A stretch of 64,000 nucleotides of DNA from Candidatus Omnitrophota bacterium (GCA_025453395.1 JALOQK010000006.1:22539-86538); one strand, 5' to 3'; shown: positions 31,359-44,729, numbered from the stretch's first letter. Notes: generated from the sequence alone by a model not told the origin. Numbers and translations: made by a program.

Positions 31359-32201
31359 CTAACCTTTTATGATAAAATTGCCCAGATATAAAGATAAATC
31401 AAAAGATCTTAAGAAAATAAATAGCGCAAGCCACAAGAATAGAAAAATAAATCCATCAATGCCAAATTTCATACTACGCATAACATGCATATTGCCGTCA
31501 AAACCCCGGCAGCACATGGCCAGGTATATGCGTTCCGCCCTCTGAAATGTGCGCAGCAATAGATTCCCCAAGAACGGCCCGGATATCTCTAGTGACATAA
31601 GATCGCGCTTAAAGGACCTGAAAGATGCCGCCCTTATCATCCCGGATACCTGATCAATCAAAACAAATATATAGCGGTAAAGAAACAACAACTGTTGCAC
31701 AAAAACCCTGGGCAAGCCTAATTTTGCCAAAGCATTACAAATAGCATTAAAACCAGTTAAAGAAATCAGAATAAACGCGGCGCTTGCCGTCAGAATAAAG
31801 CGCATGATTATGGAGAGAAAAGAAACCCATCCCGCGCTGACACCTATCGGACCCAGCTGCATAAAAACTTTTGTATCTACAATCGGGTTAAATATCCCTA
31901 TAAATACAGCGAAAGGCAAAAGCAATAATACCCTATTGAGTAAATACCCGGCAGGCAACCCTCCCAGAGAAATTAAGAACACAGGGTAAATAAAAAACGG
32001 CATTAACTGCCAAAGCGCGTATTTATCAAAAGAAATTACTGTGATAATAAAGGCCAAGGTAGCGATCAACTTCGCTCTAGGGTCAAGACGATGCAAAAAG
32101 CTGTTACCGCAAGATAATTCATCAAGATAATTTATATCTAACGAGCTTTTACCGATATTATTCACTTGTAACCTTGCGCCTACGTAAAACCAGCCCCGCA
32201 A
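31359..32201 (-). CDS. cbiQ: ECF transporter transmembrane (T) component CbiQ
   Basis: Polytopic 280-aa protein with CbiQ-type layout, sitting between cbiMN and cbiO. Confidence 0.7.
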   Translation of the reverse strand: MRGWFYVGARLQVNNIGKSSLDINYLDELSCGNSFLHRLDPRAKLIATLAFIITVISFDKYALWQLMPFFIYPVFLISLGGLPAGYLLNRVLLLLPFAVFIGIFNPIVDTKVFMQLGPIGVSAGWVSFLSIIMRFILTASAAFILISLTGFNAICNALAKLGLPRVFVQQLLFLYRYIFVLIDQVSGMIRAASFRSFKRDLMSLEISGPFLGNLLLRTFQRAERIYLAMCCRGFDGNMHVMRSMKFGIDGFIFLFLWLALFIFLRSFDLSLYLGNFIIKG

Positions 32202-33171
32202 TTACCGCGACAGACAAAACTAACGTTCCTCCCACCAACCCTGAAACAGATGTGCCTAAGCTTACCGCGGGGTATGAGGAAGATCCTTGGTGATTCTTAA
32301 AACCATAATCCGGCAAGACCGCGATTTTTTCCTGAATACTGGCTAAAGATGAGCCGATGCCCTCGCTTACCTCTAATTCTTCCTTACCGGAAGCCTTAAA
32401 CATTGCCCACTCCAAACCGTCGGGATTGCTGGAAGCAAACCAACTTAGTATAGCGGCGGTTACCAAACTAACCGCCAATAAACCTAAAAGCACTTTTCGC
32501 ATATCCACTTTTCCAATAGGGCGATTATTCACCGTGGCGTTAATGATTTCCGGACGCGCCTTCCAGACAAAAGCAACTACCGAAGCGGTAACCAAACCCT
32601 CTACTATTCCAATCGCCAAATGTATCGGCTGCATCAAAAGCACAAAACTTTTAAAAGGCAATTCTGATATCCCGGAAAATACTGTCTCCAGAACTACACC
32701 GAACGCCCCCAGCTGTAAACCAATAATCGCCGACAAAATAGAACCAACGATAATTTTGCCGCGCGTGAGATTATCACCAACTATTTTCTTGTAAATCATA
32801 GGATAAGCAATGAAGCTTGTGAAAAACCCCAGATTAAAGATATTGCACCCTAAGGCAAGAAGCCCACCGTCGGCAAATAAAAACGCCTGAACCGTTAATA
32901 TAGAAGCCATAACTAAAAATGCAGCGTATGGCCCTAAAAGAATACTTAGGATCATGCCTCCACCCAAATGCCCGCTAGAACCAGTAGCAGGAATGCTAAA
33001 ATTGATCATCTGAGCGGCAAAAATAAACGCGCCCAACACCCCCATTAAAGGGACTTTACGCTGATCTGACTCGTTTTTGACCTTCTTTGCGCTGTAAGCG
33101 ATAAGACTTGCGCTTGCCGCCCACATCACGCCACCTACTACCGGAGATAACAACGCATCTGCCATATGCAT
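32158..33171 (-). CDS. cbiM: cobalt/nickel ECF transporter substrate component CbiM fused with CbiN-like C-terminal extension
   Basis: N-terminal MHMADALLSPVVGG is the CbiM/NikM signature with N-terminal Met-His metal ligands. The 337-aa length and the extra C-terminal TM segments suggest a CbiMN fusion. Confidence 0.75.
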   Translation of the reverse strand: MHMADALLSPVVGGVMWAASASLIAYSAKKVKNESDQRKVPLMGVLGAFIFAAQMINFSIPATGSSGHLGGGMILSILLGPYAAFLVMASILTVQAFLFADGGLLALGCNIFNLGFFTSFIAYPMIYKKIVGDNLTRGKIIVGSILSAIIGLQLGAFGVVLETVFSGISELPFKSFVLLMQPIHLAIGIVEGLVTASVVAFVWKARPEIINATVNNRPIGKVDMRKVLLGLLAVSLVTAAILSWFASSNPDGLEWAMFKASGKEELEVSEGIGSSLASIQEKIAVLPDYGFKNHQGSSSYPAVSLGTSVSGLVGGTLVLSVAVIAGLVLRRRKVTSE

Positions 33172-33189
33172 AATTTATGCCTTTCTTTA

Positions 33190-34542
33190 TTAGAAGTCTA
33201 CTTGTGCCCTAACTCCGCCAATAAATATACCCGCTGTATCACCAGACACATCTTTTCCAAAAGGATTCCAGATATACTGCAAATCCGGGCTTACTGATAA
33301 ATACTTATTCAAGAAGATTTTATAGTAAGTCTCAAAATGCCCCTCGGGTTTAGCCAAATAATTATTTCTCTTCTTATATTTTACAGACGGGAATATTTGC
33401 CCCACAGCAATTCCCAAAACATCATTATCCCTTCCCCAGGGTTTACCTTCAAGTTGAAGCCCTGCGCTCCAGGATTGCCCAAGAGAATAATTTATATTCC
33501 CTGTTGCAAGCGTATCCGGGTTATATACCTTTGGATACTGCCAGCCATAACGAGTAAAAACTGTAGCCATATCATTTAATCTTTGATCAAAACTCAAACC
33601 CGCTCCGTAAGAATTCTCTTTTGTCTTGTCCGTATCTGTCCACTTAGTGTGGTACGCATTATTATTCCAGGCATAAAAACGATAATTACCGTCTAGATTG
33701 AAAAGCTTTGGCTTAAAATTGATTTCTCCCATATTAAATAAATTATCGCCTAACTTTTCCCAATCACTATTTGCGTCAAGAACCTCATAACCCAACTCCA
33801 CCCAATCTTTGGGCATATAAGCAACACGGATAGCCGCTGAATTACCAGGAAATTCTACAACTGGATTATTTACAAACATACCACTTAAGAATTGTGCTGT
33901 CTCATCATTAGCTGCCTGGTTATTATCAAAATATGCCGTAGGATCTAATTTCCCAACTGTTAAGGCAAGCTTACCATTTAAAAGCATCTGCTCATACCAG
34001 GCTTCAGTTAAATGCGCGTCCTCATTGTTATCTGGATCATTGTTTACATTGGAATATAATGTTAAGTCATCGTTCAGGCCATCACCTTTACCCGCCTCAA
34101 GATGCACAAAGGCCCTGGAATTAGCGTCCTGGAATTCCTTGATCAAAATTATATCTGTTGAATACGAAGCATCTGTGCGGTCAGACTTCTTCTCTACGCC
34201 CGAAGTAGCGTTATTCACGTTGCTGGTTCCTTGAGCGATCGCGGTAATGCCAACGCTTATATCCAAACCTTTGGCAAGCTCTACCGGAGAGATTTCTTTG
34301 CGGGTTATTTTCTCATCAAGCTGTGATAATCTTAACTCATAATCGCTTATTTTAGCCTGCTGGGCAGATGATTCATTCTTCTGACTTGCGATATATGCAT
34401 CCTGCTGGGAGAGTTTTTGCTCTAAAATTTCAATGCGTTTCTGCAATTGCCTAACCACATCTTCAATTGGTGTTTGATCTGCAAAAATTTGTGAAACGGA
34501 TAAAAATAAGAAACATAACCCCAAGCACATCCTTAGTAACAT
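33190..34542 (-). CDS. outer-membrane porin with N-terminal coiled-coil segment
   Basis: Signal peptide, a ~70-aa coiled coil (QLQKRIEILEQKLSQQ), then an amphipathic beta-strand-rich domain ending in a C-terminal Phe (...RAQVDF). Confidence 0.5.
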   Translation of the reverse strand: MLLRMCLGLCFLFLSVSQIFADQTPIEDVVRQLQKRIEILEQKLSQQDAYIASQKNESSAQQAKISDYELRLSQLDEKITRKEISPVELAKGLDISVGITAIAQGTSNVNNATSGVEKKSDRTDASYSTDIILIKEFQDANSRAFVHLEAGKGDGLNDDLTLYSNVNNDPDNNEDAHLTEAWYEQMLLNGKLALTVGKLDPTAYFDNNQAANDETAQFLSGMFVNNPVVEFPGNSAAIRVAYMPKDWVELGYEVLDANSDWEKLGDNLFNMGEINFKPKLFNLDGNYRFYAWNNNAYHTKWTDTDKTKENSYGAGLSFDQRLNDMATVFTRYGWQYPKVYNPDTLATGNINYSLGQSWSAGLQLEGKPWGRDNDVLGIAVGQIFPSVKYKKRNNYLAKPEGHFETYYKIFLNKYLSVSPDLQYIWNPFGKDVSGDTAGIFIGGVRAQVDF

Positions 34543-34574
34543 AAAACTCCTCCTTTTTATTATATATGTTATTC

Positions 34575-34988
34575 CTATATGCCTTTTCCGGTAGTAGACA
34601 TACTTAAAGAGGCGTGCCGTACCCCTTTTACAGACTTTAAAACATCAGCTAATTCTTGGGCCTTAGAAGAAGCGCCTTTGACAATGATCACTTCAAGACA
34701 ATTATGATGATCCAAATGCACATGTTGGGTAGAAATAATAAAATCTCCGAAATCATGTTGTATATCCATAAGCTTATTTACAAGCTGCCTTTCATGGTGG
34801 TCATAGATAATAGTAACTGCACCGGCTACTTCTTTTCCTTCCTGCCATTGTTTCTTTACTAAATCTTCCCTGATAAGATCCCGAATAGCTTCGGAACGAT
34901 TGGTATATTTCTTGTTCTTGATGTGACGGTCAAATTTCTCAAGCAGGTTATCTTCCAGAGAAATGCCGAATCTGACTAAACCGGACAT
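34575..34988 (-). CDS. nikR: nickel-responsive transcriptional regulator NikR
   Basis: N-terminal ribbon-helix-helix RFGISLEDNLLEKFD. C-terminal nickel-binding domain with HxxxxH...C (HVHLDHHNCLEV). Confidence 0.85.
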   Translation of the reverse strand: MSGLVRFGISLEDNLLEKFDRHIKNKKYTNRSEAIRDLIREDLVKKQWQEGKEVAGAVTIIYDHHERQLVNKLMDIQHDFGDFIISTQHVHLDHHNCLEVIIVKGASSKAQELADVLKSVKGVRHASLSMSTTGKGI

Positions 34989-35066: not shown

Positions 35067-37037
35067 TTATTCGTAACGCAGCGCTTCGATAGGATTAAGC
35101 TGTGACGCCTGGCGTGCTGGCCATAGGCCAAAAACTATGCCTACAGCAAGAGAAAAAACCGTGGAGAGAATAATTGAAAATAAAGATACTTTTACTGCCC
35201 ATCCGGCAAACATTGTTATCAACACAGAAATACCGCTTCCCAATAATACCCCTGCCAAGCCCCCAATAAAAGACATCAAAACCGCCTCGATCAAAAACTG
35301 GGTCATAATATCTTTATTATTAGCTCCAATAGCCTTACGCAGCCCTATCTCCCGAGTGCGCTCGGTCACTGAAACAAGCATTATATTCATTATGCCAATG
35401 CCTCCCACCAAAAGCGAGATTGCAGCAATTGAACCTAAAAGTAGCGACATAGTTTGTGTAGTAGCAGTCAAGGCATTCTTAATATCAGCCATATTCCTAA
35501 TTTGAAATGAATCTTCCTGGGTTTTAGTTATTAAGCGATGCTGTTTTATGATAAGCTTGCTTATGGCTTCTTGCGCCTGATCAATAAGATTAGCGTCTTT
35601 TGCCTGAACATATATAGAATCAACATACTCTTTTCCCATGACCCTGTACATTGCGGTAGTTATAGGAATAATCACCGTGTCATCCTGATCGCGCGGGCCG
35701 CTTGAGCCCTTGACCGGAAGTATGCCGATTACCTTGAAATTTATCAGGTTTATTTTTATTGTTTCGCCTATCGGGTTAGTCTCGCCAAAAAGTTCCCTTA
35801 CTACAGTTGCTCCCAGCAAGACAACTTTACTTCGGGAACGGACTTCCTCCGGGTTAAAAAACCTTCCAATTTCCGGCACAGCAGCGCGCAATTGCGCGTA
35901 ATCCACATCCACGCCCTCAACCTGCGTATTCCAATTCTGATTCGTATAGACTATTTGCGCCCGGGATGTTACCGAGGGGCTGGCGCTTTTAACATAATCG
36001 GTTAAACCCTTAATATCCTTTACATCTTCAAGCGTAAAACGCGTCACTGTCCCGGATTCTAATGAGACTCCCATCATCCTTTGCGCTGCTGGCCTGATCA
36101 TAAGAAGATTAGACCCTAAAGACGATAACTGTTTTTCTATGGATTCTTTAGCGCCTTGGCCCACGGCAAGCATGGCGATAACCGCGGCTACCCCGATAAG
36201 AATGCCTAAGATAGACAAGAACGCGCGCATCTTATGCGAAAGCATAGCAAAAATTGCCTGGCGCAGATAATCCAAAAACTCCATGCCCTTTACAGAAGAA
36301 ACCTTATGTTCTAAAAGGGCTTCTTTAACCAGCCCGCTTGAATACCCTATGGCTTTATTGGATTGATTAGAAATATTTTTATCGGAAATGACCTTTCCAT
36401 CACGCATAGTAATAATGCGCTTGGCACAGGAAGCTACTTCATTCTCGTGAGTAACAATAACAACGGTTTTACCTTTCTGGTTTAAATTCTTTAAAATATC
36501 CAGGATTTCGGCTTTACTTTTAGAATCAAGATTTCCTGTTGGTTCATCCGCTAATATTATCAACGGTTGATTGACCAATGCCCTTGCTATAGCTACTCGC
36601 TGCTGCTGGCCTCCGGAAAGCTCATTTGGCTTATGGAACATCCTTTCTTTTAAGCCAACGGCCTCAATCTCCTTTTGCGCCAGTTCTTTTATGTGCCTTT
36701 TCCCGCAATACACTAACGGCAATTCTGCGTTCTCCAAAGCGCTCATGCGCGCCAAAAGATGAAACTGCTGAAAAATAAAACCCACCAGCTTATTCCTGAT
36801 CTTAGCCTGCCTTTCTTGCGGCAAGCCGCTTAATTCCTGGCCCTCTAAAAGATAAGAGCCTGAATCCGGGCTGTCTAAAAGCCCCAGAATATGCATAAGG
36901 GTAGATTTTCCCGAACCCGAAGCGCCCATAATCGCCACGAATTCCCCCTCGGCAATCTCAAGAGAGACGCCGTCCAGGGCTTTTACCTTTATCTTGCCCA
37001 TCTGATAAGTTTTATAAATATTCTTTAATTCTATCAT
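35067..37037 (-). CDS. macB: MacB-type ABC transporter, fused ATPase-permease
   Basis: N-terminal ABC domain (GASGSGKST, LSGGQQQRVAIARAL, ILADEPTGNLD), a large periplasmic domain and a C-terminal FtsX-like 4-TM permease. Confidence 0.85.
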   Translation of the reverse strand: MIELKNIYKTYQMGKIKVKALDGVSLEIAEGEFVAIMGASGSGKSTLMHILGLLDSPDSGSYLLEGQELSGLPQERQAKIRNKLVGFIFQQFHLLARMSALENAELPLVYCGKRHIKELAQKEIEAVGLKERMFHKPNELSGGQQQRVAIARALVNQPLIILADEPTGNLDSKSKAEILDILKNLNQKGKTVVIVTHENEVASCAKRIITMRDGKVISDKNISNQSNKAIGYSSGLVKEALLEHKVSSVKGMEFLDYLRQAIFAMLSHKMRAFLSILGILIGVAAVIAMLAVGQGAKESIEKQLSSLGSNLLMIRPAAQRMMGVSLESGTVTRFTLEDVKDIKGLTDYVKSASPSVTSRAQIVYTNQNWNTQVEGVDVDYAQLRAAVPEIGRFFNPEEVRSRSKVVLLGATVVRELFGETNPIGETIKINLINFKVIGILPVKGSSGPRDQDDTVIIPITTAMYRVMGKEYVDSIYVQAKDANLIDQAQEAISKLIIKQHRLITKTQEDSFQIRNMADIKNALTATTQTMSLLLGSIAAISLLVGGIGIMNIMLVSVTERTREIGLRKAIGANNKDIMTQFLIEAVLMSFIGGLAGVLLGSGISVLITMFAGWAVKVSLFSIILSTVFSLAVGIVFGLWPARQASQLNPIEALRYE

Positions 37038-38011
37038 TTCGCGCTTTGAGTAGCCCTGTTCTGCCTATTTCGAAACGGCATAAAAGGATTGGTCCCTGAA
37101 TTATCTTTGGGAAGGGAATATTTCACAGATTGAACCAAAACCGTGTCTGCGGCGGATATTCCGGAAACAACTTCATAGTTCTTATCATCTGATAAGCCCA
37201 GTTTGATTTCCCTTTTCTCCGGCTGGGAATCGGCGGTTTTAACAAAAACATAGGCTTTATCGCCTTTCTTAAACACCGCGTCCTGCTCAATAATCAAGGC
37301 ATTATCTTTTTGCGCGATAATAAAATCAATAGAAGCGTTCATTCCGGAACGAAAAGAATCAGGGATATTTTCAGGCACCAAATCAACCTTATAGATTGTA
37401 ACGTTGTTTTCTGTGGTGGATTCATAATATATGTGGTTAACAAAAGCCTTCACCTTGATATCCGGATAGGCGTCCAATGTGATGACTGCCTTCTGCCCCA
37501 ATTTAAGCTTACCGATGTCGGTTTCATCGGCTTGCGCGCGCACGATCAACTGGTCGGATAAAACCACAACCGCGTCACTTGTAGTCACAGTCTGCCCGGG
37601 CTGGGTGGTCTGCACGATTACTTCCCCGTCAATAGGCGAGACAAGCGGGATTGCCTTATAAACTTCCTGCCAATATTTTAATTTTTCTTCGCCCTGCCCG
37701 CGCGCCACATCCAAAAGCGCGGCCCTCTCGGTTGAGCTCATCCAGCCCAAGGTTTGCCCTGTCTTTACCTGCTCTCCCTCCTTAACTAAAATCTGCTCTA
37801 CCCTGCCGTTTACCGGAGGTTTTACTTCTAACCTGTTTCTGGGAAGCACTGTGCCTGTAGTAGACACAGTATTCTGGATATCCCCGATAAAAGGCCGGAT
37901 TTCTTTGCCCGCTTCCTGCTGTTTATCGCCGCGGCTTACCTTAAATAGATATACCGCAAGTACTGCCGCCAGAATAAGAATACCGGATATTAATTTTGTT
38001 TTATTGCGCAT
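37034..38011 (-). CDS. macA: efflux transporter periplasmic adaptor subunit (MacA/RND-MFP family)
   Basis: N-terminal anchor, then alpha-hairpin, lipoyl and beta-barrel regions. 4-nt overlap with macB. Confidence 0.75.
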   Translation of the reverse strand: MRNKTKLISGILILAAVLAVYLFKVSRGDKQQEAGKEIRPFIGDIQNTVSTTGTVLPRNRLEVKPPVNGRVEQILVKEGEQVKTGQTLGWMSSTERAALLDVARGQGEEKLKYWQEVYKAIPLVSPIDGEVIVQTTQPGQTVTTSDAVVVLSDQLIVRAQADETDIGKLKLGQKAVITLDAYPDIKVKAFVNHIYYESTTENNVTIYKVDLVPENIPDSFRSGMNASIDFIIAQKDNALIIEQDAVFKKGDKAYVFVKTADSQPEKREIKLGLSDDKNYEVVSGISAADTVLVQSVKYSLPKDNSGTNPFMPFRNRQNRATQSAK

Positions 38012-39287
38012 ATTCTAATGTTTCTCCTTTCGCGTTTACCCAACTGGCCTGACTGGATAAAGCATCTGCCTGCGCCTGTAAATAAGATTTCTTGGCGCTT
38101 ACCAAATCATTCTGGATAATGATCCAATCGTTAAAACCAATAAAACCTGTGGAATATTGCGCCTCGGCGATTTTTGAACGCTCTAAAGAAGCGTTTAACA
38201 ATTTCAGCTTAACATTTACCGTATCCAAAGCATCCAATAAATTAACCCATGCCTGTTGCAAATTCACAAAAGCCTGGTCGCTAACGCTTCTTTGATTTGC
38301 CTGCGCCTGGTTGTATAATGCCTTAGCTTGAGCAACTTGCGCAGACCTTAGGCCACCTTCAAAAATAGGCAAATCTATTCCCAGGCCCAACTCCCAGACC
38401 TTATCCTTTGCCGGTAGATGCTCGCCTGAACGATTAGCGCCCGCGGTTGCGGAAACCTGCGGATAAAATTGCGAATAAGTAGACCTTAAATTAAACGATG
38501 CCGCGTTTACCTGGCTTTGCGCCTCTAACACCGAAGGATGTTTTTTAAGGATGCCCTGAAAATCAGGCGGCGTATCGGTATTTTCTGTAACAGAAAAATC
38601 CCCTGTTACTTTAAACGGTTTAAATTCAGCTCTGCCCATCTGCCGGCTTAGATTTATTTGCGCGAATTGCATATCCCTTTTAGCGCTTGCTAAATCCGCC
38701 TGCGCCTGCATAAGGTTAGCCTCGGCAGTCAATAACGCGCCCCTATGTTCCAAGCCAGAATAATAACGCAAGGTAATTAATTCCAGGTTATCCCTTCTTA
38801 TCTTCAGGATTTCTTCTATTACCGTGACTAATTCTTGCGCTTTTAATAAGCCCACAAAGCCGCTACGTAAACCTAGCCTGACGCTTGAAGAAGCAAAACG
38901 GTAATTTTCCCTGGCAGATTTAATATTTTCCGCGGCTTCCTTCAGGTTATCAACAGTTTTAAAACCATCAAAAACTAACTGCGTGGCGCTTAAGCCGTAG
39001 GAATATGAATCTTTGGTGGCTTTAGTAGTTAAACCAGAGCTATTTGTAGTCTTAGTCCTTGCGGTAGAAGCATTAAAGCTTGCGTCAACTTGGGGATAAA
39101 GTCCGCTTGCGGAGATGCCCTTAGCAGCTTCTTTCTGATTCACGCCTTCAAAAGCGTAAATTAATTCCGGGTTATTCTTTTTGGCCTCGCGGATACAATC
39201 CTGCCAGCTAAGCGAATCTTGGGCAAAAAGACTGGGAATAAAAATACTAAACAATATAATCAAACAAAAATATATTCTTAAGCTCAT
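38001..39287 (-). CDS. TolC-family outer membrane efflux protein
   Basis: Signal peptide and two OEP repeats over 428 aa. Overlaps the macA start. Confidence 0.75.
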   Translation of the reverse strand: MSLRIYFCLIILFSIFIPSLFAQDSLSWQDCIREAKKNNPELIYAFEGVNQKEAAKGISASGLYPQVDASFNASTARTKTTNSSGLTTKATKDSYSYGLSATQLVFDGFKTVDNLKEAAENIKSARENYRFASSSVRLGLRSGFVGLLKAQELVTVIEEILKIRRDNLELITLRYYSGLEHRGALLTAEANLMQAQADLASAKRDMQFAQINLSRQMGRAEFKPFKVTGDFSVTENTDTPPDFQGILKKHPSVLEAQSQVNAASFNLRSTYSQFYPQVSATAGANRSGEHLPAKDKVWELGLGIDLPIFEGGLRSAQVAQAKALYNQAQANQRSVSDQAFVNLQQAWVNLLDALDTVNVKLKLLNASLERSKIAEAQYSTGFIGFNDWIIIQNDLVSAKKSYLQAQADALSSQASWVNAKGETLEYAQ

Positions 39288-39343: not shown

Positions 39344-40879
39344 CTAATGCAATGGTACAGATAAATTCTCAGAATGGACCGGACGTTTCAAAAGAAAAAC
39401 CAATGGTAAAACACAAAGCATGGCTATCGCCCCTACATAAAAAGCGTCATTAAAAGAAAACAAGTTGGCCTGCCGCAGCAACTGCTGATGGATTAATCCA
39501 TTTGCCGCGTGAGAAGAATACGCGCCGTTCTGCGCTAAAATCGAACCCGCCTTATCCAAGGCTATCTGGTAACGCTGGTCAAACACATTCAGTTTCTCAG
39601 AAAGAATAAACTGATGAAACTGTGACCTGCGGGCAAGGATTGTGGTCATAAAGGCAATCCCGAAACTTCCCGCAATATTCCTCAAGAGATTAAAAATGCT
39701 TGTAGCGTTACCCATCTCTTCTTTATTTATAGTGGTAAAAGCCATGGTCGTCAACGGGATAAAGATCATGCCCATGCCTACGCCCATGACAATCCTTGAC
39801 CAAAGTATAATATTATAATCAACATAAAGATTAAAGTTTGACATAACAACCATGGAATACGATAAAACAATAACCCCCGTAAAAAGGATAAATTTCGGGT
39901 TTATCCTAGTTACCAACCTGCCAACCATAGGCATCATCAAAAGAGTCGCCAGGCCGCCAGGGGCGATAACAAACCCGGCAAGAAACGCGTTATACCCTAA
40001 TAGCTGTTGGACAAAAAGCGGCAAAATAACAATACTTCCGAAAAGCCCGAAAAAAGCGACAAATTGAATAGCATTGGCGCTGGCGAAAGAGATATTTTTT
40101 AACTGCCGGATATTTAACACTGGCGATTTAACCCGCAGCTCAATGATAATGAATAAAATAAACGAAATTACACTTACTACCGATAAGCGGGTTATAAAAG
40201 CAGAGGCAAACCAATCTTCACGCTGCCCCTTATCCAATATAACCTGAAGGCTTCCTACCGCTAAAACAATAAACGCCAGGCCCCAATAATCGATCTTTTC
40301 TTTTATCCTGGTTAAATACGGAGGGTCTTTTATAAAGATAGACACCATTATTATAGAAAGTACTCCTATCGGAATATTTATGTAGAAAATCCAATTCCAT
40401 GACCAATTATCCGTGATCCATCCGCCTAAAAGCGGGCCGATGATCGGCCCGAATAAAACCCCCACGCCAAATATAGCCATTGCCATACCGTATTGCGCCG
40501 GAGGAAATGTTTCAAACAGTATCGCCTGCGAAATAGGCTGCAAGCCCCCGCCTCCTATTCCCTGCAGGACCCTGAAGAAAATAAGCATAGACAAGCTTTT
40601 AGCGCTTCCACACATAAAAGAACTTACGGTAAACAATGTTATTGAAAACAAAACATAATTCCTCCTGCCAAAAACACGGCTTAGCCAACCGGTAAGAGGG
40701 ATAACTATGGCGTTAGCTACAAGATACGCGGTAATCGCCCAGGTAGCTTCATCTACCCCTGCGGATAAACTGCCGCGGATATGATCAAGCGACACATTAA
40801 CTACCGAAGTATCTATTACCTCAATAAGAGTGGGGAATATGACTGTTAAGGCAATGATCCATTTGTTTACTTTATTCAT
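39344..40879 (-). CDS. MFS transporter, DHA2 (EmrB/QacA) family, 14 TMS
   Basis: 511 aa with 14 predicted TM segments and MFS motif A-like GRLVTRINPK. Confidence 0.8.
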   Translation of the reverse strand: MNKVNKWIIALTVIFPTLIEVIDTSVVNVSLDHIRGSLSAGVDEATWAITAYLVANAIVIPLTGWLSRVFGRRNYVLFSITLFTVSSFMCGSAKSLSMLIFFRVLQGIGGGGLQPISQAILFETFPPAQYGMAMAIFGVGVLFGPIIGPLLGGWITDNWSWNWIFYINIPIGVLSIIMVSIFIKDPPYLTRIKEKIDYWGLAFIVLAVGSLQVILDKGQREDWFASAFITRLSVVSVISFILFIIIELRVKSPVLNIRQLKNISFASANAIQFVAFFGLFGSIVILPLFVQQLLGYNAFLAGFVIAPGGLATLLMMPMVGRLVTRINPKFILFTGVIVLSYSMVVMSNFNLYVDYNIILWSRIVMGVGMGMIFIPLTTMAFTTINKEEMGNATSIFNLLRNIAGSFGIAFMTTILARRSQFHQFILSEKLNVFDQRYQIALDKAGSILAQNGAYSSHAANGLIHQQLLRQANLFSFNDAFYVGAIAMLCVLPLVFLLKRPVHSENLSVPLH

Positions 40880-41828
40880 CTTTGGCGATAATACTCGATG
40901 TACAGGACATGCCTATGCGCAATATATGTCCGGCGTCGGATGTTTTATCAAAAACTATCTTTACTGGTATTCTCTGCACGACTTTAACATAATTGCCTAA
41001 CGCGTTCTCCGGAGGAAAAAGCGAAAATGCAGCCCCTGTCCCGGGCATAATACTATCCACTTTTCCGGTAAAAACTTTTCCCGGATAAGTATCCACTTTT
41101 ATTTTTACCTTCTGCCCTGGCTTAACATTTTTAAGCTGGGTTTCTTTGTAATTGGCAACCACCCATATATCATCAAGCGCAACCACCGCCATCAAAGGCT
41201 GGCCTGCCTGTATCTGATTGCCGGTTTCAACGGCTTTATTGGCAATATATCCTTGGCTGGGAGAGTATATTTTAGTATACCCTAAATTCACCTGCGCTGT
41301 TTTAAAAGCTGTCTGTTTCTGTTTCACAAGCGCCTCTTCAAGAAGCTTATTATCTTGTGCGGCCTTAAACTGCTCTATGGCCAATTTATATGCGGTAACG
41401 GATTTTTCATATTTTTCTTTAGGTAAAACTTTTTCCTTAAAAAGGCTGTCCGCTCTTTGCTTATCTTTTGCCGCCTGCAGAAGAGATATCCGGGCGGACC
41501 TTATGCGCGAAAGGGAATCGCTTAATCTTGCCGCTTCAGCTTCAAAGGCTGCCATGGCAGAGTTTACCTGCAGCTTATAATCTACAGGGTCAATATCCAA
41601 AAGCGCCTGATCTTTCTTAACGGCCTGGTTATCATTTGCATATACGAAAGCTACCGTTCCGGGAACTTTAGAGGCTATGCTATGGACCCTGCCGGCAATA
41701 TAAGAATCATCTGTATCAACAAAATTAAGGTTTGATATTAAATAAAACGCCAAACTTACAGCGCCTAATAACGCCAGCACGATCAATAAAATAATAATTT
41801 TCCCCTTCTTCGTATTTTGTATGCTCAT
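40872..41828 (-). CDS. HlyD-family secretion/efflux adaptor (EmrA-like)
   Basis: N-terminal TM anchor, long coiled coil and a C-terminal beta domain. Overlaps the MFS pump start. Confidence 0.75.
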   Translation of the reverse strand: MSIQNTKKGKIIILLIVLALLGAVSLAFYLISNLNFVDTDDSYIAGRVHSIASKVPGTVAFVYANDNQAVKKDQALLDIDPVDYKLQVNSAMAAFEAEAARLSDSLSRIRSARISLLQAAKDKQRADSLFKEKVLPKEKYEKSVTAYKLAIEQFKAAQDNKLLEEALVKQKQTAFKTAQVNLGYTKIYSPSQGYIANKAVETGNQIQAGQPLMAVVALDDIWVVANYKETQLKNVKPGQKVKIKVDTYPGKVFTGKVDSIMPGTGAAFSLFPPENALGNYVKVVQRIPVKIVFDKTSDAGHILRIGMSCTSSIIAKDE

Positions 41829-41832
41829 TTTA

Positions 41833-43335
41833 TTATTTCTCCATTCTCTCGTAAACTAATGATAAATCTATCCCCATGGAATACAGATATTTCGCGTATC
41901 CCCGTTTAAGCTGGTAATCACTATTATAATAATTTGCCTGAGCGGTAGTTTCCTGAGTTATTGCCTCAAGCACCTCCGTGGGATTAGCGCTTCCGGCTTC
42001 ATATTTCGCGCGGTAAAAACGCACATTCTCTTCTGCCTGTGCCAGCGCGTCTTTGGCAACTAACATTGTCTCTCTGGCATTCTCAAGGCCATAATAACTT
42101 TCTTCGATCTCAAAGCGGATATCTTCAAGCAGTTTTTCCTTTTGCTGGCCCAGTTGCTGCCTGTGTAAACGCTCTTTTAAAAGTTGGGCTCTTGCCAAAC
42201 CGCCATCATAGAGGTCCATCTTCGCCCCCAGCACAGTTGAGAAATTATCCTGATGCGCCTGATATTGGTTTTGTTGGTATGCATACCCGGCCTGAGCAAA
42301 AATAACCGGCAGGTTTCCCGCAGCCTTAGATCTTTCGGCTGATATTGAAGCCTGCATTTGCTGATTGTAGAATATTACTTCCGGCCTATTTGTTTTTGCC
42401 ATATCCCAAGCCCTGTCCATTTCAGGGAAACTAACCGGATAGCCTGGAATATCCCGTACAATAATAGCCTGCCTTAAAGGAAAAGATAAAATATTATTCA
42501 GCCTTGCCACGGCCAACTGCCTGGAATTACGCGAACTAATCAGTTTCTGCTTTACGTCAGCTAATCGCACTTTGGCAGGAAGCACATCGTTTTCAACCAC
42601 TACCCCCTGCTGGTAAAGATGCTCTATATCATTAAGGTAAGAGACCAGGCTTTTAACTTCATCTTCAAATACCGCGATCATTTTCTCCGCCTCTAAAAGG
42701 TCAAAATATGAAGCAATAAACTCCAAGACCGCTACTCTTTTGACGCTTTCGGTGCGGGCTTCCTGGGCCTTGGTTTTCTCCCGCGAGGCCATATAACTTG
42801 AGAGGTTCTTCCCAAAATCAAACAAAGTCTGATAAACATTAAAACCGTAAGAGTATGAATCCTTTTGGGCAGTATTGACTATCTGGGAATTTAATCTTGA
42901 CGCCGGCTGAAATCTTAAGAATGAGCGCGAGGCATCAAGGCTTACCTGCGGGAGAAGCACCGAGCGGCTCAAAAGCGAATCTTCATACGAGATCTCATTA
43001 TCCAAAAGGGATATTTTTATTAAGCGGTTATCCGAGAGGACGATTTTTATGCCTTCTGACAGAGTAATAACCTTCTCTTTGGGCTGTTGAGGACCAGCCC
43101 AAACAGAACCGAACCAACAGGCGCAAAATGTTGCGAAAATAACCGCTTTAAGCAGGTCATCAACTTTAACATCAAAAACTTTGGCGATTTTAACCAATGT
43201 TTTTATCGTGGGATTAGGATTTGCCCCTGACTCCACTTTAACAATAGTATTAAGCGATAAATCCGACAACTTAGAAAGCCTGTCCTGTGAAATACCTGTT
43301 CTAGACCTTAGTTTCCTGATATTTGCGCTTATCAT
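41833..43335 (-). CDS. XRE-family HTH domain fused in-frame to hydrophobic segment and TolC/OEP-family outer-membrane efflux domain
   Basis: Residues 1-62 MISANIRKLRSRTGISQDRLSKLSDLSLNTIVKVESGANPNPTIKTLVKIAKVFDVKVDDLL form a classic HTH_XRE. Residues 64-80 AVIFATFCACWFGSVWA look like a signal-peptide or TM segment. The remaining ~420 aa show OEP-type repeats. No ATG/GTG/TTG lies in frame between the HTH and the hydrophobic segment. Confidence 0.6.
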   Translation of the reverse strand: MISANIRKLRSRTGISQDRLSKLSDLSLNTIVKVESGANPNPTIKTLVKIAKVFDVKVDDLLKAVIFATFCACWFGSVWAGPQQPKEKVITLSEGIKIVLSDNRLIKISLLDNEISYEDSLLSRSVLLPQVSLDASRSFLRFQPASRLNSQIVNTAQKDSYSYGFNVYQTLFDFGKNLSSYMASREKTKAQEARTESVKRVAVLEFIASYFDLLEAEKMIAVFEDEVKSLVSYLNDIEHLYQQGVVVENDVLPAKVRLADVKQKLISSRNSRQLAVARLNNILSFPLRQAIIVRDIPGYPVSFPEMDRAWDMAKTNRPEVIFYNQQMQASISAERSKAAGNLPVIFAQAGYAYQQNQYQAHQDNFSTVLGAKMDLYDGGLARAQLLKERLHRQQLGQQKEKLLEDIRFEIEESYYGLENARETMLVAKDALAQAEENVRFYRAKYEAGSANPTEVLEAITQETTAQANYYNSDYQLKRGYAKYLYSMGIDLSLVYERMEK

Positions 43336-43454
43336 ATAATAATATATTGCTTTTCTTATATTACTTTTCCCATAATACTACTATTATAATATAATAAACG
43401 GCAAATAGTCAAGTAAAAAATACCTATATTATTCTTTGGAATTAACGGCGAGTC

Positions 43455-44729
43455 TTAGAACTTCTTGCGGAAATGGCGGTAGTTACTGGTGCTGCGTTGC
43501 TTATTGCGAAAGAAATTCTTTTGTTGATGCTTTTGCTGATGCTTTTGTTTTTGCGCTGCCCCGGAAACGGCTTGGTCAAACTCTTCCTGCGGAACTTCCG
43601 GATGTTTGGCGATCGGCAAAGAGGAGCGGATAATCTTCTCAATATCGCGCACATCACGGGACTGATCAGGGGTGGCAAATGAAATAGCGTGCCCCTTATG
43701 CCCGGCTCTGGCGGTGCGCCCAATGCGGTGCACGTAATTTTCCGCGTCATCCGGCAGGTCGTAATTGATTACAAGCTGAATCCCCTTTACATCCAGCCCG
43801 CGCGAAGCGATATCAGTAGCAACCAACACCTTGAATCTGCCGGATTTGAAACCATCAAGGGCGTCTTTACGCTGGCTTAAAGAACGGTTAGAATGGATCT
43901 CTGCCGCGCTATAACCCATATCCCGTATAGAATTTGTGATCTTCCTGGCATTGTGTTTAGTGCGGGAGAATAAAATCACCGGGCCGTGATACTGCGCTAA
44001 GATTTTACCTAAAAGGCGGTTCTTTGCCTCTTTTCTTACAATAAAAAGCTCTTGCGTCACGTTTTCAGCGGTAGTCCCCGAAGGAGCGACCTCCGCGGAA
44101 ACCGGAAGCTTCATGTATTTAGCCGCCAAAGCCATAATTTCTTTAGGGATAGTCGCGGAAAAAAGCATAGTCTGCCTATCCTTGGGCACAAAACGTAAGA
44201 TTTTCTCTATCTGCGGAGCAAAACCCATATCAAGCATGCGGTCAGCTTCATCAAAAACAAGCATTTTTAAATCATCCAATACCACATTCCAATGCGACAT
44301 GTGGTCAATCAACCTGCCGGGAGTAGCAATTACAATCCGGGGATTCTTGCGCAAGGCCTGAACTTGCCTGTCCATAGGAGCCCCTCCGATAAGGCAGGCA
44401 GTATTTATAGAAAAGGCCTGCGCCAAAGGATGGAAATTTTCGCTAATCTGCATGGCAAGTTCTCTTGTGGGAGCAAGCACTAAACCCATGGCATCGGTTT
44501 TTTGCGCCAGCAGCTGGCACATGGGCACAGCGAATGAATGCGTTTTACCAGTCCCTGTCTGGGCAATACCAATGACATCTTTACCTTCAAGAGCCAAAGG
44601 AATTACTTTCTCCTGAATGGGAGTAGGCACCTTAAATTTAAGGCGCTCTAAGATATCAAGGATTTTAGGCGCAATACCTAAACCATAAAAACCTTGCTGC
44701 TGGGATGGCGCTATTTGTCTATGCGGCAT
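43455..44729 (-). CDS. DEAD-box ATP-dependent RNA helicase (RhlE-like) with basic C-terminal tail
   Basis: Q motif, motif I AQTGTGKT, Ia, DEAD (VFDEAD), SAT, and motif VI HRIGRTARAG. Confidence 0.9.
   Translation of the reverse strand: MPHRQIAPSQQQGFYGLGIAPKILDILERLKFKVPTPIQEKVIPLALEGKDVIGIAQTGTGKTHSFAVPMCQLLAQKTDAMGLVLAPTRELAMQISENFHPLAQAFSINTACLIGGAPMDRQVQALRKNPRIVIATPGRLIDHMSHWNVVLDDLKMLVFDEADRMLDMGFAPQIEKILRFVPKDRQTMLFSATIPKEIMALAAKYMKLPVSAEVAPSGTTAENVTQELFIVRKEAKNRLLGKILAQYHGPVILFSRTKHNARKITNSIRDMGYSAAEIHSNRSLSQRKDALDGFKSGRFKVLVATDIASRGLDVKGIQLVINYDLPDDAENYVHRIGRTARAGHKGHAISFATPDQSRDVRDIEKIIRSSLPIAKHPEVPQEEFDQAVSGAAQKQKHQQKHQQKNFFRNKQRSTSNYRHFRKKF

Follow-up and report, generated by a model that had tools for sequence, protein, structure and literature searches.

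An XRE helix-turn-helix domain fused in frame to the signal peptide of a TolC-like channel at the head of an EmrAB-like efflux operon in Candidatus Omnitrophota

In Escherichia coli the outer-membrane factor (OMF) gene tolC is not linked to emrAB, and EmrR, the regulator, which is a member of the MarR family, has a gene of its own. Signal peptides that take on a task after cleavage are known from the enterococcal pheromones, which are cut out of lipoprotein signal peptides, and from the Rem signal peptide of mouse mammary tumour virus. Transmembrane transcription regulators (TTRs) such as ToxR, CadC and BcrR are numerous: a census counted 4523 TTRs with HTH_3, a common DNA-binding domain among them, and 56% of all TTRs were single-pass (PMC10269533). 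Here we describe a gene in a stretch of 64,000 nucleotides, the window, from a Candidatus Omnitrophota metagenome-assembled genome (MAG; GCA_025453395.1, JALOQK010000006.1:22539-86538) in which a complete XRE helix-turn-helix (HTH) domain is joined in frame to a full-length TolC-like outer membrane efflux protein (OEP). The fusion is real, conserved and probably recurrent; it is also rare and confined to one lineage.

The fusion is encoded by a single open reading frame (ORF) on the minus strand, 43335..41833, which specifies a protein of 500 residues and opens an EmrA/EmrB-like operon. From N- to C-terminus the protein consists of a complete HTH, the h/c-region of a signal peptide and a full-length OEP:

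43147..43335, minus strand: XRE/Cro-C1 HTH domain, residues 1-63, from Pfam HTH_3 and AlphaFold2 (AF2); counterpart of a separate 63-residue protein at locus L005
43096..43146, minus strand: signal-peptide h/c-region, residues 64-80 (AVIFATFCACWFGSVWA), with a predicted signal peptidase I cut after A80 (VWA/G)
41833..43095, minus strand: mature TolC-like OMF, residues 81-500 and the stop codon, with two OEP matches

Pfam assigns HTH_3 to residues 6-61 (E 1.2e-10, 41.6 bits, cut-off 23) and OEP twice (E 9e-45, 153 bits, cut-off 22), the first repeat at residues 94-283, and the sole hydrophobic segment lies at residues ~61-80. No ATG, GTG or TTG occurs in codons 47-80; codon 61 is CTG, and the in-frame TTG-46 and GTG-34 fall within the HTH and are not kept as start codons among the other fused genes. 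Since there is no such codon across 47-80 and no Shine-Dalgarno sequence before codon 61, a canonical internal start was rejected. An earlier note on this DNA had described the same anatomy, that is an HTH, a hydrophobic stretch and an OEP without a canonical internal start, at the head of an EmrAB-like operon followed by a MacAB-TolC system, and this description was borne out; the in-frame HTH-OEP fusion is confirmed.

Compared with the TolC-type OMF (PF02321) of EmrAB-TolC-type MFS pumps, the fused protein is alike in its two OEP repeats, its full-length alignment and fold, its operon with EmrA-like and DHA2/EmrB-like partners and its AXA core, but a complete 63-residue DNA-binding domain stands in place of the n-region of the signal peptide. 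With ToxR, CadC, BcrR and RodZ-type HTH-transmembrane proteins it shares the arrangement of an N-terminal cytoplasmic HTH, one hydrophobic segment and a periplasmic part; it differs from these TTRs in a hydrophobic segment that resembles a signal peptide open to cleavage rather than a stable anchor, and in an extracytoplasmic part that forms an entire outer-membrane channel subunit without a recognised sensor domain. An OEP partner for an HTH does not appear in the supplementary tables examined of the TTR census (PMC10269533). The extended signal peptide region (ESPR) of autotransporter and TpsA signal peptides likewise places a long N-terminal extension before an otherwise normal h/c-region; Pfam reports no ESPR in the fused protein, only HTH families and OEP, and the extension found here differs from extended signal peptides in being an independently folding, widely distributed DNA-binding domain. 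Literature searches returned no paper on a fusion of HTH and OEP or on a bacterial transcription factor borne by a signal peptide.

The fusion is genuine and selectively maintained. A protein identical over all 500 residues has been deposited for a Candidatus Omnitrophica MAG, where an 89-kb contig encodes it, and four further fused orthologs (506-515 residues, 60-66% identity) with the same HTH and OEP architecture were found on independent contigs from JGI, Logan and NCBI, each opening an OEP-EmrA(-EmrB) operon. The check among orthologs for the HTH, which the earlier note had proposed, thus yielded four more carriers, and because these come from independent samples a local sequencing frameshift is excluded. 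In a codon-level comparison, synonymous sites were saturated in most pairs of fused genes (proportion of synonymous differences, pS, 0.72-0.91). For the closest pair, L003 and L004, the ratio of nonsynonymous to synonymous substitution (dN/dS) was 0.049 in the HTH, 0.18 in the signal segment and 0.114 in the OEP, and in the remaining nine pairs the proportion of nonsynonymous differences (pN) in the HTH, 0.15-0.23, did not exceed that in the OEP, 0.19-0.26. The HTH is under purifying selection with a pN no higher than that of the OEP, and it is therefore translated in frame and constrained at least as much as the channel. With five independent fused contigs, intact frames and purifying selection, an assembly or frameshift artefact was rejected.

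The origin of the fusion can be read from its unfused relatives. All other close orthologs (~440-470 residues) have no HTH and carry an ordinary signal peptide at the N-terminus, e.g. MKHKIIKISIFIFLVCFCRCAYA/EE, and several are preceded by separate XRE genes of 63-71 residues that end 2-6 nucleotides before the OEP start. At L005, which encodes P0006, among the closest unfused relatives, a separate 63-residue XRE ends in VKVDDLIK and a TAA stop codon, and the ATG of the OEP follows 6 nucleotides later; on the P0044 contig a 71-residue HTH gene is followed after 2 nucleotides by an unfused OEP. The end of the L005 XRE is the exact point at which the fused proteins turn into the h-region, and in all five a stretch of the form V(K/R)(V/I)Dx(L/V)(L/I)(K/R) runs directly into the hydrophobic core. 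Thus the fusion deleted the XRE stop codon and the spacer behind it, together with the start codon and charged n-region of the OEP, and in the alignment the entire XRE and the entire h/c-region are kept. The earlier note had counted separate upstream HTH genes in orthologs as evidence against a fusion; such genes do occur, at L005 and on the P0044 contig, and they explain its origin and do not refute it. Further adjacent XRE and OEP pairs, whose OEPs belong to several subfamilies, are found in metagenomes (L069, L094, L134, L150 and L171, among the matches listed). At L171 (~962-1250) the OEP starts at a TTG 5 nucleotides past the XRE stop and has almost no n-region (MLISAFLVLACIRMGYA/EE), and this locus is a plausible pre-fusion intermediate, one small indel from fusion.

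A genome scan with one genome per species in a collection of 185,579 species gave 43 loci encoding this OEP family. In 30 of the 43, a TetR gene of ~220 residues abuts the OEP in place of the XRE. Such TetR-regulated OEP-EmrA-EmrB operons of other Omnitrophota (OEP identity 48-61%) resemble the operon in the window in their orthologous OEP, their operon, the downstream MacAB-TolC system and a regulator gene abutting the OEP start, and differ in that the XRE replaces TetR in a minority lineage only and is fused only in a subset. The XRE-regulated form is accordingly a minority lineage, and the fused form is a minority within it. In a bootstrapped neighbour-joining tree of the mature OEP, a simple distance tree, P0001-P0004 grouped in 95% of replicates, beside P0006 and P0008, while P0005 grouped with the unfused P0044 in 91% and all five fused proteins grouped together in 6%; two independent fusions are likely on this tree.

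At L008 (1209-1580; identical in L009 and L010, three samples) an ORF of 123 residues, P0121, encodes the same HTH and hydrophobic core with 40 OEP residues that belong to a different OEP subfamily, followed by a stop codon and then a porin-like gene, and the same -10 palindrome lies upstream; this suggests that P0121 may be the truncated remnant of an independent third XRE-OEP fusion. At L055 (4001-8216) a 71-residue XRE, 79% identical to the HTH of the window, is followed by a MazE/AbrB-like gene of 80 residues and then by OEP-MacA-MacB, and the XRE family is therefore tied to several kinds of efflux operon in the lineage. P0008, a close unfused ortholog at L054 (1148-4374), has neither XRE nor TetR upstream, and a divergently transcribed MarR-family gene with a further OEP gene is found there instead. 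Swapping of regulators (TetR, XRE, MarR) at the head of the operon seems to be frequent in Omnitrophota.

The signal segment was compared with that of the unfused orthologs. The h/c-region and the AXA site fall in the same alignment columns as their signal peptides and cleavage sites, and small residues occupy positions -3 and -1 in all five fused proteins (VWA, VLA, SLA, SLA and AYA). The hydrophobic core of ~12-13 residues is followed by a c-region containing G and S, and ~8-15 residues separate the cleavage site from the first conserved OEP residue. More hydrophobic h-regions, as in anchors of the signal recognition particle type, were not seen: the hydrophobicity was 2.95 in the fused proteins and 3.03 in 88 unfused signal peptides (p=0.63). 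The full-length AF2 model (predicted local distance difference test, pLDDT, 85.5) has a helix at residues 58-77, disorder at residues 79-83, which coincide with the predicted cleavage position, and a TolC protomer at residues ~88-500. A Foldseek search with this model retrieved TolC, ST50, CusC and OprM with E-values of 1e-21 to 1e-17 over 410-440 columns, TolC and ST50 at 1e-21, and by phmmer the fused OEP aligns over residues 16-392 of E. coli TolC. The NCBIfam model TIGR01844 (TolC) matches residues 91-488 at 123.7 bits, below its cut-off of 225, which marks a divergent member; the unfused paralogous OEP of the window likewise stays under this cut-off, at 180 bits. Judged by the profile matches, the alignment to TolC and the predicted structure, the OEP half is complete and TolC-like.

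The HTH is 79% identical to the free-standing XRE of L005. Modelled alone by AF2 it forms five helices (pLDDT 92.5), and the best structural matches of this model are C.AhdI, the DNA-binding domain of SinR and C.BclI (TM-score 0.87-0.95, root-mean-square deviation 0.8-1.3 Å), which are small dimeric regulators. A sequence search of the PDB with the HTH gave no match at E<=1e-3; the hits that it did give were weak and of generic XRE type. The nearest sequence relatives are proteins of ~70 residues, mostly from Patescibacteria, with 69-79% identity. One of these is P0161 (L056 2501-4676; also L057 and L058), a Patescibacteria homolog of ~75 residues and ~70% identity, which heads an operon of XRE, N6_N4 methyltransferase and RE_BsaWI beside a serine recombinase, with an ATCA-TTATAAT-TGAT element upstream; this is the layout of a restriction-modification (R-M) controller (C) protein. 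The HTH of the window is like the C proteins C.AhdI, C.BclI and C.Esp1396I and the SinR domain in its five-helix fold and in the palindrome at its own promoter. The likeness to C proteins extends to the size of its free-standing relatives (63-75 residues) and to the ~70%-identical Patescibacteria homologs that head methyltransferase and restriction endonuclease operons. It differs from C proteins in heading an efflux operon, not an R-M operon, and in being covalently joined to a secreted protein, and its sequence similarity to the solved C proteins is weak (E ~4e-3). On sequence grounds, the efflux regulator and the C-like proteins of Patescibacteria belong to a single, highly conserved family.

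A DEAD-box helicase gene ends at 43455, leaving an AT-rich promoter region of 119 nucleotides before the fused ORF, which contains:

43407..43412, minus strand: -35 hexamer TTGACT, from a consensus scan
43383..43388, minus strand: -10 hexamer TATAAT, from a consensus scan, within the palindrome
43380..43393, minus strand: candidate operator, the 14-bp palindrome TATATTATAATAGT (consensus ACTATTA/TAATAGT), in a block that extends as AGTAG to 43378

The promoter TTGACT-18-TATAAT (43412..43383) agrees with the consensus at 11 of 12 positions, and the ATG of the operon has no strong Shine-Dalgarno sequence. The intergenic DNA of eight aligned XRE-linked loci is unalignable except for the -35 box, the spacer and the block (A)CTATTATAATAGTAG(T), a perfect palindrome ACTATTA/TAATAGT centred on the -10 hexamer; TTGAC(T/A) stands at the same place in seven of the eight, the eighth (L003) having TTGCAT. 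The motif ACTATTATAATAGT(AG), centred on the -10 box, is present in 10/10 XRE-linked loci, fused or unfused. Its core, TATTATAA[TG]AGTAG, precedes the XRE once in each of these ten, with a second copy on the other strand at L055, and occurs nowhere else in the 389 kb of sequence compared, which includes the 43 OEP loci of the genome scan, all without XRE (30 TetR-type). Immediately before the ATG, L001-L004, L008 and L055 have another, partial site, (ACT)ATTATAAT. A palindrome upstream of the ORF, which the earlier note had suggested looking for, is thus found overlapping the -10 box and conserved across loci, and it is likely the operator. Autorepression fits, with DNA binding presumed, because the -10 site is conserved whether the XRE is free or fused.

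At two or fewer mismatches the palindrome has three matches in the window where 0.35 are expected. One of them, ATTATTATAATAGT (minus strand; 41920..41933), has a single mismatch and lies in the 3' end of the OEP gene; as an operator it was set aside as probably a coincidence, since its sequence codes for the conserved NYYNS motif and none of the other fused loci has it. An imperfect inverted repeat of 21 nucleotides (43343-43363 and 43387-43407; 76% complementary, 23 nucleotides between the arms) brackets the -10 box, the operator and the region before the ATG, and is not an obvious RNA element, one arm being mostly upstream of the likely transcription start. A metagenome scan with the combined promoter and operator pattern returned at least 120 stretches, and an XRE lay downstream in only 8 of the 120 listed, so that beyond this lineage the AT-rich pattern lacks specificity by itself.

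We lean, with modest confidence, towards the HTH being a cytoplasmic extension of a cleavable signal peptide, so that signal peptidase frees the channel and leaves an autorepressor of ~80 residues; a single gene would then probably supply the secreted channel together with its regulator. The HTH would fold and remain in the cytoplasm, aided by the K/R just ahead of the core, and the internal hydrophobic core would direct the chain to Sec and insert N-in/C-out while Sec translocates the remainder. Signal peptidase I would then cut after A80 and the mature OEP would proceed to the outer membrane and function there with the EmrAB-like pump. The HTH-plus-h-region peptide of ~80 residues would stay at the inner membrane, active there or once freed by signal-peptide peptidase or site-2 protease, and would dimerise, bind the palindrome over the -10 box and repress its own operon. 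Repressor and channel would be made 1:1, and production of the repressor would be tied to export of the channel. Known OMF structures place the N-terminus of the mature protein close to the outer membrane; a linker of 8-15 residues could not span back to the inner membrane, and a functional channel would therefore require cleavage. The earlier note had offered three readings (a cleavable self-encoded regulator, an inner-membrane-anchored sensor and an unusual start), and the first of these fits the comparative data best, given the aligned h-region and AXA site and the purifying selection on the HTH.

A more specific and more tentative extension, possible though short of probable, is that this arrangement constitutes export-coupled feedback. 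The repressor, being the n-region of the channel's signal peptide, would become an independent species of ~80 residues only after the signal peptidase cut and diffusible only after the h-region is clipped by signal-peptide peptidase or site-2 protease. Signal peptidase would act as the 'site-1' protease, as in regulated intramembrane proteolysis, and the cell would count exported channels and shut the operon off.

Several observations weigh against a shed autorepressor. We infer the steps after translation, namely cleavage, localisation and DNA binding, from the sequence. Cleaved signal peptides of bacteria do not usually have a folded domain, here of 63 residues, ahead of the h-region, and such a domain could slow or redirect targeting; the operator copy of the window carries two mismatches in its left arm. 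The fusion is also rare, with five full-length cases and one remnant known. It occurs in none of the 43 loci of the genome scan, nor among the 150 best hits of a search of 1.84 billion representative proteins with residues 1-150 as query. A word-index search with residues 1-122 returned only small XREs and the 123-residue remnant P0121, and did not re-find P0001-P0005 themselves. The fusion may be merely tolerated and not advantageous. The tree that separates the fused proteins is, as noted, a distance tree, and fission from a fused ancestor instead of repeated fusion is the less parsimonious history.

If the segment were an uncleaved signal anchor, the protein would be a single-pass inner-membrane transcription regulator with the HTH inside and the OEP-like domain in the periplasm, as a sensor or a tethered pump partner, and the downstream TolC (39287..38001) would be the real channel. 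Single-pass HTH_3 membrane regulators are common (PMC10269533), one hydrophobic segment stands directly behind the HTH, the AF2 helix through residues 58-77 is continuous, and a second OEP gene lies within the same gene cluster. However, the core is short and is followed by a G/S c-region with AXA, like the cleaved signal peptides of the unfused orthologs; an anchored copy could not form a channel, the linker being too short for the periplasm. In addition, the complete TolC fold is as well conserved as that of the unfused orthologs (dN/dS 0.11), and unfused relatives have the same two-OEP synteny. We therefore regard a stable anchor as unlikely.

It is similarly doubtful that the gene gives two products through extra initiation at the near-cognate codon 61 (CTG, TTG or GTG) or through re-initiation nearby, which would yield an OEP precursor M-L-K-AVIF...VWA and leave the full-length chain mainly as regulator. 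Codon 61 is NTG in 5/5 fused genes (CTG, TTG, CTG, GTG, CTG), and a start there would give a textbook signal peptide of 20 residues with K at +3; the unfused L171 OEP itself begins at TTG with almost no n-region, and the ATG of the operon lacks a strong Shine-Dalgarno sequence as well. Yet NTG at this conserved Leu/Val is also found in four of nine unfused XRE genes, and as 43% of the Leu codons in these genes are NTG and L003 and L004 are closely related, five of five is not significant. CTG is a very weak bacterial start codon, and no Shine-Dalgarno-like sequence precedes codon 61 at any locus. Moreover, the HTH would still be made only within the full-length chain, which faces Sec and signal peptidase. 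Finally, a non-functional accident, in which a recent deletion or assembly error joined two genes and the product is misfolded or degraded, is very improbable: the fusion is rare and the relative at L008-10 is a truncated remnant, but five independent contigs with saturated synonymous divergence have the frame intact and both parts under strong purifying selection, and the operon and the conserved operator are retained.

The genes downstream of the fusion make up the rest of the EmrAB-like operon and a second efflux system:

40872..41828, minus strand: EmrA-like periplasmic adaptor (membrane fusion protein, MFP), HlyD_D23 and HlyD_3
39344..40879, minus strand: DHA2/EmrB-like MFS efflux permease, TIGR00711 at 465 bits (cut-off 230; DHA2 model with 14 transmembrane segments)
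35067..39287, minus strand: second efflux system, directly downstream, by Pfam
39287..38001, minus strand: TolC-like OEP of the second system, by Pfam
38011..37034, minus strand: MacA-like adaptor of the second system, by Pfam
37037..35067, minus strand: MacB-like ABC transporter of the second system, by Pfam

The best match of the EmrA-like adaptor is EmrA/EmrK (TIGR00998), at 246 bits and thus under the cut-off of 391. The order of OEP followed by EmrA(-EmrB) is alike in all fused loci (L001-L004). The six-gene synteny of the two efflux systems recurs at the unfused TetR-type locus L006, and for this reason the proposal of the earlier note, by which the presence of a second TolC would have allowed the first OEP to diverge, is unsupported; nor is it supported by the strong constraint on the first OEP (dN/dS 0.11; 55-66% identity to unfused orthologs). 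No XRE paralog or TetR gene was found elsewhere in the window in a window-wide search. Directly downstream of MacB, a Pfam scan identified a NikR-type regulator with ribbon-helix-helix and NikR_C domains (34988..34575), and beyond it lie a porin-looking ORF of 450 residues with a signal peptide (34542..33190) and a multi-pass membrane ORF (33171..32158); the cluster 32158-34988 may be a nickel-related uptake locus.

Each half of the fused protein belongs to a well-known family, and for their joining, HTH with OEP, no precedent was found in the literature searches, in the TTR census tables examined or among the 150 best hits of the search of representative proteins. If the HTH is shed by signal peptidase, cytoplasmic domains that are folded and functional can be borne by a Sec signal peptide in bacteria, and the locus would offer a tangible and testable example of what bacterial signal peptides may do after cleavage. 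Shedding would also provide a natural case of a regulator produced at a constant 1:1 stoichiometry with the secreted protein under its control, and keeping pace with the export of that protein; synthetic biologists could adopt such a design. Should the export-coupled reading be true, a bacterial transcription factor would here, for the first time, be delivered in the form of a signal peptide. Also on a conservative reading, the gene is a 'Rosetta-stone' fusion that links a widespread XRE family of ~70 residues, met elsewhere as C-protein-like genes of Patescibacteria, with a defined operator and with the control of efflux pumps in the uncultivated Omnitrophota.

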